Source: Escherichia coli (GTDB taxonomy: Bacteria > Pseudomonadota > Gammaproteobacteria > Enterobacterales > Enterobacteriaceae). Taken from it: a stretch of DNA of 64,000 nt. Under the pieces are notes generated by a model. That model had not been told where the DNA came from, made no database searches, and saw nothing but the letters and a program-made list of their open reading frames with translations. Shown here piece by piece: positions 4,685 through 58,328 of the stretch. Made by a program: the position numbers and the translations under genes. The stretch lies in assembly GCF_003018115.1 (NCBI RefSeq), contig NZ_CP027457.1. One strand, 5' to 3'. Each line of letters starts with the position of its first letter. The stretch's first letter is position 1.

Positions 4685-4756
4685 TTGCGGTTGGTAATAA
4701 AAGTCTGGCTCCCTATAATGAGCCAGACTTTTTACCGCTGTAATAAAGGAGAAATC

Positions 4757-5143
4757 ATGAGCAAAACTATCGCGACGGAAAATGCACCGGCAGCTATCGG
4801 CCCTTACGTACAGGGCGTTGATCTGGGCAATATGATCATCACCTCCGGTCAGATCCCGGTAAATCCGAAAACGGGCGAAGTACCGGCAGACGTCGCTGCA
4901 CAGGCACGTCAGTCGCTGGATAACGTAAAAGCGATCGTCGAAGCCGCTGGTCTGAAAGTGGGCGACATCGTTAAAACTACCGTGTTTGTAAAAGATCTGA
5001 ACGACTTCGCAACCGTTAATGCTACCTACGAAGCCTTCTTCACCGAACACAACGCCACCTTCCCGGCACGTTCTTGCGTTGAAGTTGCCCGTCTGCCGAA
5101 AGACGTGAAGATTGAGATCGAAGCGATCGCTGTTCGTCGCTAA
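4757..5143 (+). CDS. ridA: enamine/imine deaminase RidA (YjgF)
   Basis: ORF track 4685..5143; true start MSKTIATENAPAAIGPYVQG gives 128 aa. Confidence 0.9.
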   Translation: MSKTIATENAPAAIGPYVQGVDLGNMIITSGQIPVNPKTGEVPADVAAQARQSLDNVKAIVEAAGLKVGDIVKTTVFVKDLNDFATVNATYEAFFTEHNATFPARSCVEVARLPKDVKIEIEAIAVRR

Positions 5144-5200
5144 TCTTGATGGAAATCCGGGCTATCATGCCCGGATTAAGTCTGATGACAAACGCAAAAT

Positions 5201-5292
5201 CGCCTGATGCGCTACGCTTATCAGGCCTACGTGATTCCTGCAATTTATTGAATTTGTAGACCGGATTAGGCTTTTACGCCGCATCCGGCATG
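5201..5292. repeat. REP/BIME cluster (two inverted REP units)
   Basis: GCCTGATGCGCTACGCTTATCAGGCCTAC and CCGGATTAGGC...GCCGCATCCGGCA palindromic units between convergent ridA and mgtA. Confidence 0.7.
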
Positions 5293-5348
5293 AACAAAAC
5301 TCACTTTGTCTGCAATCTGAATCCGGGCCACCATGCCCAGTTTATTCT

Positions 5349-8045
5349 TTACTGCCAGCCGTAACGACGGCTATAGAACCCTTTCACCAACTGGGTTAAT
5401 GTCATATACCCTGCCAGAATCGCAACCAGCCACGGGAAATAGCTTAACGGCAACGCCTGTAATTGCAGATAACTGGCCAGCGGTGAAAACGGCAATGCGA
5501 TCCCGACAATCATCACGATCACGGTCATGATCATTAACGGCCACGATGCACAGCTCTGAATAAACGGCACACGGCGGGTGCGGATCATATGCACAATCAG
5601 CGTTTGCGACAGTAAGCCCACCACAAACCATCCCGACTGGAACAGCGTTTGCGTTTCCGGCGTGTTGGCATGGAATACCCACCACATCAGGCAAAACGTC
5701 AAAATATCGAAGATCGAGCTGATCGGTCCGAAGAAGATCATAAAGCGCCCCAGATCCGCCGGATTCCAACGCTGCGGCTTTTGAATTTGCTCGTCGTCGA
5801 CGTTATCAAACGGGATCGCCACCTGTGACACATCGTACAGCAGGTTCTGAATAAGCAAGTGTAACGGCAACATCGGTAGGAAGGGCAAGAAAGCACTCGC
5901 TACCAGCACGCTGAACACATTACCGAAGTTAGAGCTCGCCGTCATTTTGATGTATTTCAGCATGTTGGCGAAAGTGCGACGTCCCTCAATAACCCCCTCT
6001 TCCAGCACCATCAGGCTTTTTTCCAGCAGGATGATATCAGCCGCTTCACGGGCAATATCTACCGCGCCGTCCACAGAAATGCCGATATCCGCAGCGCGTA
6101 AGGCGGGCGCATCATTAATACCATCGCCCATAAAGCCAACCACATGCCCTTCGCGCTTCAGTAAGGTCACAATGCGTTCTTTATGCATCGGCGTCAGGCG
6201 GGCAAACAGCGTGGTGCGCTGTGCAAGATTTGCCAGTTCGTCGTCAGATAGCGTTTCAATATCACTACCAATGACCACCTCTCCCGCGTCCAGCCCCACT
6301 TCATGGCACACTTTCGCTGCAACTAACTCACTGTCGCCAGTAAGGATTTTTACGGTAATTCCACTCGCTTTTAATGCCTTCAGTGCCGGAGCGGTTGTCT
6401 CTTTTGGCGGATCAAGGAAAGCAATATATCCTTCGAGGATCAGGTCGGATTCATCCGCCCGCTGGTAATCTCCTTCACGCGCTGGCAGGTATTTCGTCGC
6501 CACCGCAACCACGCGCAGCCCCTGACGATTCAGCGTATCAGTAACCCGCTTAATCTTACGCAGCATGATGTCATCGAGCGGCACAATCTCGCCATTGTGA
6601 CGCACCTGCGAACACACATTGAGGATTTCCTGCAATGCACCTTTGCAAACCAGCTGATGGTGCTCGGTATTTTCTGCCACTACCACCGACATCCGGCGAC
6701 GCTCGAAATCAAACGGAATCTCATCGATTTTTTGCCAACGACTGGCCAGCGAGCGCGCTGACTCTTCATCCGTACCTTCGAGCACCGCTGTATCGAGCAG
6801 GTTTTTAAGTCCGGTCTGATAATGACTGTTCAACCACGCGCTATGCAGCACGCGTTCGCTGGTTTTACCGGAGATATCGGTATGATTCTCCAGCACAATT
6901 TTATCCTGTGTCAGGGTGCCGGTTTTATCAGTGCACAGAATATCCATTGCGCCAAAGTTCTGAATGGCATCCAGATGTTTGACGATCACTTTCTGTTTCG
7001 ACAGCTTTACTGCGCCGCGCGCCAGCGTCGAGGTAACAATCATCGGCAACATTTCCGGCGTTAGGCCTACCGCGACCGAAAGCGCAAACAGCGCCGCTTC
7101 CCACCAGTCGCCTTTGGTGTAGCCATTGATTAACAGCACCACCGGTGCCATCACCAGCATAAAGCGAATCAGCAGCATACTGACGCGGCTGATCCCTTGC
7201 TGAAAGGCATTCGGCTCGCTTTCCTGCTCACTAACACGCCCCGCCAGTTGACCAAACCAGGTATTGGCACCTGTAGCAATCACCATTGCTTGTGCCGTGC
7301 CGCTCACCACGGTGGTGCCCATAAAACACAGCGTGTCGCACTCCAGCGGATTGCTGTGCTCCGGCTGGCGAGTGGTAGCGGCTTTTTCCACGGGCAGAGA
7401 CTCACCGGTTAACGACGCCTGAGCGACGAACAGATCCCGCGCCTGCAAGATACGTAAATCTGCCGGGATCATATCTCCCGCCGCCAGTTTTATAATATCG
7501 CCGGGCACCAGCTGGTCGATCGGGATCTCCAGCCAGCCATTTTCGCCTTTGTCGTTAATTACGCGCAGCACCGTCGCGGTATTGCTGACCATCGCTTTCA
7601 GGGCATCTGCCGCTTTAGTGGAACGTGCTTCCTGAATAAAGTTCAGCAACGTAGAAATAGCGACCATTAGCGCGATAACGCCCGCAGCAAATAAATCTTC
7701 CGTGGCGTAAGAAATAGCGCCGAGAATGGTGAGTAAAATATTAAAGGGGTTGCGATAGCAGACCCATAAATGTACCCACCACGGCGACGGTTGTTGTGCG
7801 GGTAATTTATTTTCACCATGTTGTTCGCGGGCAGATTCCACTTCCGCCTGATTTAACCCTTCCGGATGGGTGTCGAACGTTTTCCACAATTCTTCTTCGG
7901 GCATCACCGCCATTTTCAGGCAATGCGCACTTAAGGACGGCGGGACCACCGTATTCACTGTCTGCTGCGCGCCAGGCAATGGATCACGATGAACCAGACG
8001 GGAAGGTAAATGGCGAATGAGCCGGGTAAAAATTTCTTTAAACAT
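5349..8045 (-). CDS. mgtA: Mg2+-importing P-type ATPase
   Basis: 898-aa ORF with P-type ATPase motifs (DKTGTLT, TGDS, GDGINDAPAL). Confidence 0.95.
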   Translation of the reverse strand: MFKEIFTRLIRHLPSRLVHRDPLPGAQQTVNTVVPPSLSAHCLKMAVMPEEELWKTFDTHPEGLNQAEVESAREQHGENKLPAQQPSPWWVHLWVCYRNPFNILLTILGAISYATEDLFAAGVIALMVAISTLLNFIQEARSTKAADALKAMVSNTATVLRVINDKGENGWLEIPIDQLVPGDIIKLAAGDMIPADLRILQARDLFVAQASLTGESLPVEKAATTRQPEHSNPLECDTLCFMGTTVVSGTAQAMVIATGANTWFGQLAGRVSEQESEPNAFQQGISRVSMLLIRFMLVMAPVVLLINGYTKGDWWEAALFALSVAVGLTPEMLPMIVTSTLARGAVKLSKQKVIVKHLDAIQNFGAMDILCTDKTGTLTQDKIVLENHTDISGKTSERVLHSAWLNSHYQTGLKNLLDTAVLEGTDEESARSLASRWQKIDEIPFDFERRRMSVVVAENTEHHQLVCKGALQEILNVCSQVRHNGEIVPLDDIMLRKIKRVTDTLNRQGLRVVAVATKYLPAREGDYQRADESDLILEGYIAFLDPPKETTAPALKALKASGITVKILTGDSELVAAKVCHEVGLDAGEVVIGSDIETLSDDELANLAQRTTLFARLTPMHKERIVTLLKREGHVVGFMGDGINDAPALRAADIGISVDGAVDIAREAADIILLEKSLMVLEEGVIEGRRTFANMLKYIKMTASSNFGNVFSVLVASAFLPFLPMLPLHLLIQNLLYDVSQVAIPFDNVDDEQIQKPQRWNPADLGRFMIFFGPISSIFDILTFCLMWWVFHANTPETQTLFQSGWFVVGLLSQTLIVHMIRTRRVPFIQSCASWPLMIMTVIVMIVGIALPFSPLASYLQLQALPLSYFPWLVAILAGYMTLTQLVKGFYSRRYGWQ

Positions 8046-48905: not shown

Positions 48906-49246
48906 ACCAGGCCAAGCGTATGCTGGTTGATCAAATAATATCCCCCAAGCGCAGCAATATTAATATTCACCTGCAATGGGTCGATATCTGGCTTAAAAAT
49001 ATTGTGTTTCTTCCCTTCATCCAATAAGGATTCCATTAACCGCAAGTGCGCATGGGTAATTTCTAAGAGACGCTGTGATTTTGCATAATGCACACCTTTA
49101 CTTTGATTTTCACTATGCACAATTTTTAAAAACCAGGGATTAGCAATATAATAATCCCATGTAAAATCAATAATTTTCTCAATGGCTTTTTGTGGCTGGT
49201 TAACCTGCTGATTAACGAATACACCGATACCGACAGCGTAGAATAA
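48906..49246 (-). pseudogene. remnant of a TetR-family regulator gene (C-terminal ligand-domain segment only; ytfA-like by position)
   Basis: Minus-strand frame ...[79 protein letters not shown] resembles a TetR C-terminal domain; in-frame stop at 49247-49249 and no HTH upstream; the frame reads on into IS sequence. Confidence 0.4.
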
Positions 49247-49467
49247 TTACATACCGCACAACAAGAATGTACGGTGTAAGGCGTGGAAGTCATTTTCTCC
49301 CCGGGCGCATCGTTATATCCATAATGAGCGATTTTTGATATTAATATCTTTCACCATCCGCTATTTTCACTACTTCAGAAAACAAACTTATTTTTATTAA
49401 TATCAATTATTTTTCTTTGAACATTCAACTGCGATATTTGTAAAAATATTAAACAGGCAACAATAAA

Positions 49468-50262
49468 ATGACATTACCAACAACTATTTATTCATTCCCC
49501 GCATATTTACCTCGTTTTTCGTCCACCGACAAACCAGCAAAACTAAAATTTCATCAATACGCACGCGCTACATTACTGTCAAATCGTGGAAGAGATCATA
49601 ATTGCGATGGCAGACGTACTGTTGAGATCCACAAACTAGATCTCTCAGACTGGCAAGCATTCAATAAGTTAGCAAAGAAGTGTAATGCTTACGATGGAGT
49701 AACGATGAATGGTGATAATTCTTTTGGATGGAACCATGAAGCTACATTAGATAATATTCACGCCCAGAAATACAATAAAGCTTACGCGGGTGCGAGGTTA
49801 ACCGCAGAACTGAAATATTTATTGCAAGATGTCGAATCCTTCGAACCCAACAGTAAATACACAATACACGAAGTGGTTTTGGGACCTGGTTATGGTACTC
49901 CAGACTATACCGGCCAAACGATAGGATACGTTGTAACCCTTCCTGCCCAAATGCCTAATTGCTGGTCATCTGAACTACCAACAATCGATCTTTATATCGA
50001 CCAACTTCGCACTGTTACAGGCGTTTCTAATGCCCTCGGATTCATCATTGCTGCATTGCTAAACGCGTATTCTGATTTACCCCATGATTTGAAAATTGGT
50101 CTGCGTTCCTTATCAAGCTCAGCCGCAATCTACTCGGGTTTGGGTTTTGAGCGAGTGCCGCAGGAGCGAGACATCAGTTGCGCTCGTATGTATCTAACGC
50201 CAGCAAACCATCCTGACTTATGGACACAAGAGAATGGTGAATGGATCTACTTGCGAAACTAA
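49468..50262 (+). CDS. yjfZ: uncharacterised protein YjfZ
   Basis: 264-aa AT-rich ORF; name from size and synteny next to rplI. Confidence 0.75.
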   Translation: MTLPTTIYSFPAYLPRFSSTDKPAKLKFHQYARATLLSNRGRDHNCDGRRTVEIHKLDLSDWQAFNKLAKKCNAYDGVTMNGDNSFGWNHEATLDNIHAQKYNKAYAGARLTAELKYLLQDVESFEPNSKYTIHEVVLGPGYGTPDYTGQTIGYVVTLPAQMPNCWSSELPTIDLYIDQLRTVTGVSNALGFIIAALLNAYSDLPHDLKIGLRSLSSSAAIYSGLGFERVPQERDISCARMYLTPANHPDLWTQENGEWIYLRN

Positions 50263-50288
50263 TACCTGACGAAAAATAGAAAGCAAAA

Positions 50289-50312
50289 CGCCGACCAATG
50301 GTCGGCGTTTTT
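50289..50312. terminator. bidirectional terminator between yjfZ and rplI
   Basis: Hairpin CGCCGACCAATGGTCGGCG with an A-tract upstream and TTTTT downstream. Confidence 0.65.
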
Positions 50313-55511: not shown

Positions 55512-56966
<1,455 letters not shown>

Positions 56967-57014
56967 TCACTCTAATTTTCAAAAGTAATCACAACAAGAT
57001 TATTTATGATTAAA

Positions 57015-57030
57015 TGTGACGCGACACACA
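57015..57030. promoter_or_regulatory. candidate CRP site in the ulaA-ulaG divergent regulatory region
   Basis: TGTGAcgcgacACACA, one mismatch to TGTGA-N6-TCACA, in an AT-rich 350-bp intergenic region. Confidence 0.4.
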
Positions 57031-57263
57031 AATAATTCCATAACGAAAATATGGGATTCACACAACGAAACAATTAATCATTTAAATTTATTAAGTTAAT
57101 TGAATTACACATTCCATTAAATCTTTCCACACTCCAAATTCACAACAATTCACCCGGCAAAAAGTCAAAAAATGGTCATTGCCTTCCTGAAAAAATAGTG
57201 CCAGGATTAATCAAAACCAATCACATATTGATTCGAATTGAACTATCATGAAGGTAAATGGCG

Positions 57264-58328
57264 ATGAGTAAAGTGAAAAGTATCACCCGAGAATCCTGGA
57301 TCCTGAGCACTTTCCCGGAGTGGGGTAGCTGGCTGAATGAAGAAATTGAACAAGAGCAGGTCGCCCCTGGCACATTTGCGATGTGGTGGCTAGGCTGCAC
57401 CGGGATCTGGTTGAAATCAGAAGGTGGCACCAACGTTTGCGTTGATTTCTGGTGCGGCACTGGCAAACAAAGTCACGGTAACCCGTTAATGAAACAGGGT
57501 CACCAGATGCAGCGCATGGCTGGCGTGAAAAAACTGCAGCCAAACCTACGCACCACCCCGTTTGTTCTTGATCCGTTTGCGATTCGCCAGATCGACGCGG
57601 TACTGGCGACTCACGATCACAACGATCATATCGACGTTAACGTCGCTGCTGCCGTGATGCAGAACTGTGCTGATGACGTACCATTCATTGGACCGAAAAC
57701 CTGCGTTGATTTGTGGATTGGCTGGGGCGTACCGAAAGAGCGTTGCATCGTGGTCAAACCGGGCGATGTTGTAAAAGTAAAAGACATTGAAATTCATGCG
57801 CTTGACGCTTTCGACCGTACTGCACTGATCACCCTGCCTGCCGATCAAAAAGCGGCTGGCGTACTGCCGGACGGCATGGACGATCGCGCGGTGAACTATC
57901 TGTTCAAAACGCCTGGCGGCTCCCTGTATCACAGCGGCGACTCCCACTACTCTAACTATTATGCGAAGCACGGTAACGAACATCAGATCGATGTGGCGTT
58001 AGGATCGTATGGTGAGAACCCGCGCGGTATTACCGACAAAATGACCAGCGCCGATATGCTGCGTATGGGTGAAGCCCTGAATGCGAAAGTGGTTATCCCG
58101 TTCCACCACGACATCTGGTCAAACTTCCAGGCCGATCCGCAAGAGATCCGCGTGCTGTGGGAGATGAAAAAAGATCGTCTGAAGTATGGCTTCAAGCCGT
58201 TTATCTGGCAGGTTGGCGGCAAATTTACCTGGCCGCTGGATAAAGACAACTTCGAGTACCACTATCCGCGCGGTTTCGATGATTGCTTCACTATTGAACC
58301 GGATCTGCCGTTCAAGTCATTCCTGTAA
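57264..58328 (+). CDS. ulaG: L-ascorbate-6-phosphate lactonase (metallo-beta-lactamase fold)
   Basis: 354 aa from [12 protein letters not shown]; HDHNDH metal-binding motif. Confidence 0.9.

Follow-up and report, generated by a model that had tools for sequence, protein, structure and literature searches.

The question raised by this locus is how an AT-rich patch built around one gene of no assigned function, yjfZ, comes to stand within core sequence of the Escherichia coli chromosome. In the window, by which we mean the whole 64-kb stretch of DNA analysed here (from contig NZ_CP027457.1), the gene order runs cycA, fklB, ytfB, an insertion sequence (IS) of the IS200/IS605 family, yjfZ, rplI-rpsR-priB-rpsF, yjfY and the ula genes, and the IS lies within ytfA, the remnant of a gene for a TetR-family regulator. 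The region as a whole is best explained as a polymorphic chromosomal slot scarred by deletion, in which a single accessory gene has survived, an account that we regard as likely even with the predicted fold of YjfZ and its silencing included. The ytfA pseudogene and yjfZ of strain K-12 would thereby mark the place of a catabolic operon, for sugar/acid utilisation and under TetR control, that this lineage has lost and that is kept in ~58% of complete E. coli genomes. What the analysis adds is this deletion-scar origin, a map of the alternative states of the slot, and the prediction of a GNAT-like fold for an orphan protein family restricted to Escherichia.

A preliminary description of the window had singled out yjfZ (264 residues) and the roughly 350 bp upstream as an AT-rich islet between the IS/TetR remnant and rplI, and both its composition and its position are borne out. 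The interval 49121-50262 (1142 bp) has a G+C content of 0.397 against 0.513 for the whole window, which places it ~12 points under the surrounding DNA and 3.2 standard deviations under the mean of all 1142-bp windows, just 1.5% of which are equally AT-rich. The 347 bases 5' of the yjfZ start (49121-49467) have a G+C content of 0.326 and the coding sequence 0.428, and the 300-bp minimum of the islet (0.31) falls within 49300-49467. A check at the codon level agrees, the G+C content at third codon positions being 0.37 in yjfZ and 0.43-0.69 in its neighbours. Within the islet, yjfZ is an intact open reading frame (ORF) of the described length at 49468-50262 on the + strand. The upstream part, although AT-rich as described, is not a single unit: its first 76 bases (49121-49196) still belong to the TetR remnant, and beyond these it consists of a 103-bp remnant of an SDR gene and the native leader of yjfZ.

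Remnants of a regulator gene and a divergent operon

We first consider what is left of ytfA. Its two pieces correspond to about residues 82-215 of an intact 215-residue regulator, with the N-terminal helix-turn-helix (HTH) domain deleted. The middle piece (48901-49196, - strand; residues ~82-180; Pfam TetR_C_29, E = 4.8e-15) is 99% identical to positions 808-1103 of comparison locus L005, which lie within an intact TetR gene. The 3' piece (47046-47153, - strand), mapped by blastn, overlaps the end of ytfB, and its translation matches the C-terminus of the intact 215-residue TetR of strain 13E0780; the IS, IS609, separates it from the remaining gene. The K-12 annotation holds a partial TetR/AcrR pseudogene at the same place (locus L001 3147-3548). 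This pseudogene has the same remnant and the same junctions as in the window, but it is unsplit, whereas the window's copy is cut in two by IS609.

Between the two deletion junctions sits what is left of a gene for a 3-ketoacyl-ACP reductase (SDR), a decayed piece of 103 bp (49200-49302, + strand) recognised by blastn and by its translation. It covers about codons 30-64 and contains two in-frame stops; the translation (31 letters) was aligned against NLLINDLPDADSVEKLHITQQECIAEGVEVICF of the intact protein, and at the DNA level the fragment is 81-84% identical by blastn to the intact SDR genes in loci L005, L009 and L010. From 49300 on, the DNA is 97.5% identical to a region of strain CH10508 (L010 12001 onward) that lies 3' of an MFS transporter gene and 5' of yjfZ. 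On the strength of this identity we take 49300-49467 (+ strand) as the native AT-rich 5' region of yjfZ, presumably its promoter and leader.

The junctions themselves carry short matches. At junction 1, the microhomology GTGGCGGA is common to the TetR gene and the SDR gene, and at junction 2 there is a CCCTG-type match between the SDR gene and the DNA 5' of yjfZ. Together with the two gene remnants, these microhomologies suggest that the form shared by K-12 and the window goes back, through two illegitimate deletions, to one in which operon, MFS gene and yjfZ were all present. The starting point would be a fuller state such as that of CH10508, in which ytfB, an intact TetR gene, a divergent operon, yjfZ and the rplI terminator follow one another, and in which the operon runs in the order SDR, sugar-phosphate isomerase, enoyl-CoA hydratase, CoA-transferase, FAD oxidoreductase and MFS transporter. 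The TetR protein presumably controls this operon. Deletion 1, of 545 bp, would have removed the N-terminus of TetR, the divergent promoter region and the 5' end of the SDR gene, and deletion 2, of 7.3 kb, the remaining operon up to 168 bp 5' of yjfZ. With ~7.9 kb lost in both, what is left would be a dead TetR gene, the 103-bp piece of the SDR gene, and yjfZ behind its own AT-rich leader; IS609 later inserted into the dead TetR gene. Additionally, ytfA has been reported to vary in its presence among E. coli strains but to occur in every E. albertii and E. fergusonii strain examined (PMC6790063), which fits an ancestral regulator and operon. Deletion, and not insertion of yjfZ beside an IS, thus appears to have shaped the arrangement.

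Two points weigh against this account of the scar. The SDR fragment is 16-19% diverged from all intact alleles, while the neighbouring TetR remnant is 99% identical to its counterpart, and this excess divergence calls for an extra assumption, namely an old scar sheltered from recombination. The fragment, lying between the junctions, may have been sheltered from recombination with operon-bearing genomes, and the TetR remnant may have been homogenised via the flanking core gene ytfB. The fragment also falls into two scar haplogroups ~7% apart, with 829 genomes at >=99% identity and 1388 at 90-95%. Moreover, the direction of change, deletion as opposed to stepwise gain, is read from the gene remnants and the microhomologies.

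IS609 spans 47154-48900 and has this name in RefSeq, with Pfam matches to Y1_Tnp, OrfB_IS605 and Cas12f1-like_TNB; tnpB lies at 47197-48405 (- strand), tnpA at 48413-48844 (+ strand), and 21-nt subterminal hairpin repeats at 47163-47183 and 48865-48885. Its closeness to yjfZ raises the alternative that the IS brought in or mobilised yjfZ and the AT-rich leader, IS and islet being one acquired unit. The two are 567 bp apart, both are accessory, and IS609 occupies this exact site in 1742 of 5426 complete E. coli genomes, together with yjfZ. However, yjfZ lies outside the element, and K-12, CH10508 and others carry it with no IS609 here. The junctions of TetR remnant, SDR fragment and yjfZ are exactly the same in K-12 and its relatives, where IS609 is absent; in the window the element lies cleanly inside the TetR remnant, and in K-12 its flanks meet precisely at the insertion point. 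In addition, yjfZ is found 3' of the intact operon in intervals with no annotated IS (CH10508 and OkiPb01697), and IS609 copies elsewhere in E. coli come without yjfZ. Already contradicted by these observations, the idea of a gene borne by IS609 deserves next to no credence. Because K-12 has identical junctions without it, IS609 arrived later and had no role in the scar. The preliminary description had joined the IS, the decayed regulator and the islet into one accessory patch; all are indeed accessory, but the patch would have been formed by the deletion of an operon, with IS609 a later and unrelated addition.

States of the ytfB-rplI interval in E. coli

A comparison of the ytfB-rplI interval across the 5426 complete genomes distinguished at least five states, and the view of a small accessory patch within core sequence was sustained: the interval is strongly polymorphic, and far from both invariance and the known conserved function that would have spoken against that view. 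At a coverage of >=80%, yjfZ is present in 2510 genomes (46%) and absent from 54%. The intact TetR gene with the divergent operon, whose products are an SDR reductase, a sugar-phosphate isomerase/epimerase, an enoyl-CoA hydratase, a CoA-transferase and an FAD-dependent oxidoreductase, is found in 3129 genomes; the operon ends with TRAP transporter genes in 1446 genomes and with an MFS transporter gene in 1674. The unannotated scar allele of the SDR fragment (90-100% identity) occurs in about 2224 genomes and an intact SDR gene (at most ~83% identity to the scar) in about 3137. By subtraction, yjfZ should coexist with the operon and the MFS gene in at least roughly 240 genomes.

Individual strains illustrate these states. 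K-12 has the same remnant as the window, and yjfZ, with no IS609. Strain 13E0780 and the B strains have the intact TetR gene, the five enzyme genes and the TRAP transporter genes, and no yjfZ. CH10508 and OkiPb01697 combine TetR, the enzyme genes, the MFS transporter and yjfZ (frameshifted in OkiPb01697). In WP8-S18-CRE-02 (L012), the slot between the MFS gene and the rplI terminator is empty, and in ST131 and GPEC1035 it holds, instead of yjfZ, a frameshifted hipA-family toxin gene and an HTH gene (L011 4013-5774 and L013 4008-5769; one of the strains is avian). On the right, all interval variants share one boundary, a G+C-rich hairpin at 50285-50311 found by terminator scan, which is the rplI terminator and probably serves yjfZ as well from the opposite side; AAAGCAAAACGCCGACC...GGTCGGCGTTTTT at this boundary is common to the yjfZ, TRAP, empty and hipA states. 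The small site before the rplI terminator is a recurrent cargo position.

A separate observation concerns OkiPb01697 (L009 2878-4009), whose ytfB and TetR alleles are 77-79% identical to the window, with yjfZ and rplI at 98.5%. The left side is thus a haplotype divergent at the level of species, which suggests an import from another Escherichia lineage.

The usual marks of a genomic island were not found: no tRNA gene lies within 44-54 kb of the window, no repeats flank the yjfZ cassette, and no integrase is annotated in any of the interval states.

The YjfZ family, its constraint and its predicted fold

YjfZ belongs to the Pfam family DUF2686 (YjfZ/YjiC), matching it with 509.9 bits (cut-off 25; E = 1.8e-153) across positions 17-285 of the 285-position profile; among NCBIfam models it has no match. 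As the preliminary description had it for yjfZ, no function is assigned to the family, which was found solely in Escherichia. We searched 5.8 billion proteins by word index and profile, and scanned 1.84 billion representatives in full with HMMER. These searches returned YjfZ of E. coli/Shigella, its paralog YjiC with E. albertii relatives, and fragments, all named Escherichia/Shigella or without a name apart from two exceptions. One is an 86-residue partial sequence labelled Vibrio parahaemolyticus, probably mislabelled or a contaminant; the other, a 3635-residue repetitive surface protein (P0024), was judged spurious, since each of its many repeats matches a short stretch weakly. Across one genome per species (100,044 species), a scan matched E. 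albertii and one contaminant contig and nothing else; as it returned no E. coli locus, it says nothing about E. coli itself. The contig, 1283 bp long and binned with a 'Collinsella sp.' metagenome-assembled genome (JAIJJM010000835.1), encodes a protein with 95% identity to YjfZ of E. coli and almost certainly entered that bin as E. coli contamination. Nine tblastn matches filed as plasmid (four to yjfZ, five to yjiC) fall in records of 373 kb-4.9 Mb and were set aside as mis-filed chromosomal sequence. yjfZ itself was found in E. coli/Shigella only.

The sole relative of yjfZ is the other DUF2686 member, yjiC (K-12 b4325; 4695-5525 of the DH5alpha locus L008). YjiC shares with YjfZ the invariant motifs, the predicted GNAT-like fold and the restriction to Escherichia, and yjiC is likewise AT-rich (gene 40% G+C, upstream region 27%). 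The two differ in position, yjfZ occupying the ytfB-rplI slot and yjiC being flanked by iraD and uxuR, and YjiC has ~12 additional N-terminal residues. Because the E. albertii gene between iraD and uxuR is its syntenic ortholog, yjiC is the older copy. The DNA upstream of yjiC is reported as an H-NS-bound 'promoter island' (PMC3661553), and AZT induces yjiC 11-fold independently of LexA (PMC11228462). YahL and YdjO, proteins of similar size named together with YjfZ in PMC11057252, were considered as further paralogs and dropped, as neither matches DUF2686 or aligns meaningfully with YjfZ.

The same report, PMC11057252, is the sole paper treating YjfZ as a subject. Its 'YjfZ' quantitative PCR primers, probe and Sanger primers have 0-1 mismatches to yjiC and >=7 to yjfZ, and the yjiC-specific probe matches 4399 of the 5426 genomes, against 2510 with true yjfZ. 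By its oligonucleotides, the published assay is thus a yjiC assay. The target matters to users of the assay. With an occurrence in 46% of complete genomes, yjfZ cannot serve as a universal marker of E. coli.

Is yjfZ a functional gene at all? Its absence from 54% of complete genomes, the existence of frameshifted or truncated alleles (L009, P0004 and P0005), the lack of any phenotype or function in the searchable literature and its probable silencing by H-NS would all suit an ORF that has no function or is decaying towards loss. Against this, dN/dS ratios among five yjfZ alleles are 0.14-0.46 (dS up to 0.12), and YjfZ and YjiC, only 39% identical over their full length, share more than 50 invariant positions, which indicates that the ORF encodes a protein under constraint. 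The full-length ORF is also retained in the window, K-12, Sanji and CH10508, and the predicted fold is coherent. Decay is therefore decidedly unlikely in our judgement, and yjfZ is by its substitution pattern a real gene under purifying selection.

To approach its function, we examined AlphaFold2 models built on the shallow family alignment. The model of YjfZ has a mean pLDDT (predicted local distance difference test) of 52.7 and a pTM (predicted template modelling score) of 0.58, with the C-terminal half at pLDDT 65-89, and that of YjiC a pLDDT of 59.1 and a pTM of 0.61. Both models predict the order beta-alpha-alpha-beta-beta-beta-alpha-beta-alpha-beta, as in the GNAT core fold. The invariant TV(T/S)GV(S/A)N..GF sits at the place of GNAT motif A, between the fourth strand and the next helix. 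In GNATs, motif A reads Q/R-x-x-G-x-G/A in the beta4-alpha3 loop and binds the pyrophosphate of coenzyme A (CoA); in YjfZ, T182-V-T/S-G185-V-S/A187 follows the predicted beta4, and its glycine and small last residue fit. DUF2686 proteins would further possess a family-specific N-terminal module with the motif RGxxHNxDG, an extension of ~50 residues relative to GNATs.

Several findings count against this assignment. The motif begins with T rather than Q/R, and no catalytic residue can be named. The models are of modest confidence and come from a shallow alignment, which YjfZ and YjiC share, so that the two are not independent, and the N-terminal ~130 residues are poorly modelled. At the sequence level there is no backing: hmmscan against Pfam at E <= 10 returned DUF2686 only and no GNAT family, a profile search of PDB sequences gave no match, and hhalign against an alignment of RimI gave a probability of 0.3%, a weak test with profiles this shallow. 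Similarity of YjfZ to GNATs such as RimI, TacT and AtaT is undetectable in sequence. The structure check proposed for YjfZ yielded a GNAT-like fold in the models. On balance we consider a GNAT fold probable and put enzymatic acyl transfer at about even chances. YjfZ would be a cytoplasmic GNAT-fold protein, most likely acting as an acyl-CoA-dependent N-acyltransferase on some acceptor. A GNAT-like acyltransferase is the first testable functional lead for two K-12 genes, yjfZ and yjiC.

Since the slot of yjfZ is occupied elsewhere by a hipA-type toxin-antitoxin pair, YjfZ might instead be a stand-alone toxin of GNAT type or a factor in competition or defence. GNAT toxins do occur among the structure matches, with a trivial advantage in Z score. 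Unlike the tRNA-acetylating toxins TacT and AtaT, however, YjfZ has no antitoxin partner. A small antitoxin gene (RHH/DUF1778) in the same operon, as in the TacAT, AtaRT and KacAT modules, was not found: no ORF longer than 26 residues lies wholly inside the 271 bp 5' of yjfZ, the only larger upstream ORF (55 residues, opposite strand) straddles the SDR fragment and the TetR remnant, and the terminator follows directly 3' of yjfZ. The operon-bearing state likewise has no antitoxin-sized ORF beside yjfZ. We regard such a role as improbable. A defence or phage origin of yjfZ was also considered and rejected: there was no PADLOC match, PHROGs returned noise only, and tblastn against phage sequences found no copy of yjfZ.

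A more far-reaching combination, which we hold to be unlikely, would make the scar an ancient structural polymorphism, kept beside the intact operon since before the radiation of E. coli, and DUF2686 a young, Escherichia-restricted GNAT offshoot beyond sequence recognition with RGxxHNxDG as a new module. A hint of the former is that the 103-bp fragment enclosed by the junctions has diverged by 16-19%. If true, the offshoot would be an acyltransferase on a niche-specific target or a solitary toxin-like enzyme.

Regulation of yjfZ and minor features of the window

Returning to the deletion scar and its surviving gene, we asked how yjfZ may be regulated. In K-12, the yjfZ-ytfA spacer contains sites for RpoD holoenzyme and H-NS, as determined in vitro by genomic SELEX (systematic evolution of ligands by exponential enrichment; PMC3946193). 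Of the two features expected of an H-NS target, AT-richness is seen in the islet itself and H-NS binding is taken from these published K-12 data. From the AT-rich leader and the binding in K-12, silencing of yjfZ by H-NS under laboratory conditions seems plausible, although the binding was observed solely in vitro, on K-12 DNA. A consensus promoter scan found no site in the 168-bp leader (49300-49467), and the only promoter-like sites on the + strand 5' of yjfZ fall within the TetR remnant (49125-49167); the scan gave no more such sites than shuffled sequence does. The leader also contains a 17-nt AT-rich direct repeat with the core ATTAATATC at 49332-49348 and 49388-49404, 56 nt apart, which could be a regulator site, an H-NS nucleation site or chance.

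Like the H-NS-silenced AT-rich islets of E. coli, the yjfZ islet is low in G+C, strain-variable and taxonomically restricted, with H-NS binding reported for the K-12 spacer (PMC3946193). It differs from them in that it brings along neither an integrase nor a tRNA gene, and neither direct repeats nor mobility genes. It also departs from xenogeneic islets in that no donor lineage can be named, its gene's sole relative is a chromosomal paralog, and its present shape would be the work of deletion. The islet is real, an ordinary accessory islet with a divergent orphan GNAT-like gene, and nothing in it points to a new kind of system.

Some minor features remain. No Rfam match reached the gathering score in 46.9-50.5 kb; weak sub-threshold matches (HgcC, sot0042 and RAGATH-18) lie over the 3' end of tnpB (47141-47324, - strand), where a TnpB guide RNA is expected. 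The sole AT-rich spot in the window comparable to the yjfZ islet, presumably the first islet of the preliminary description, is 36000-37740, with G+C minima of 0.34 (1142 bp) and 0.26 (300 bp); it contains a 303-residue ORF at 36523-37434 (- strand), probably ytfI, between ytfJ-like and cysQ-like genes. A short AT-rich stretch at 56826-57355 (300-bp minimum 0.30) is probably the ulaG-ulaA intergenic region, which also appears in the list of H-NS-bound sites (PMC3946193).
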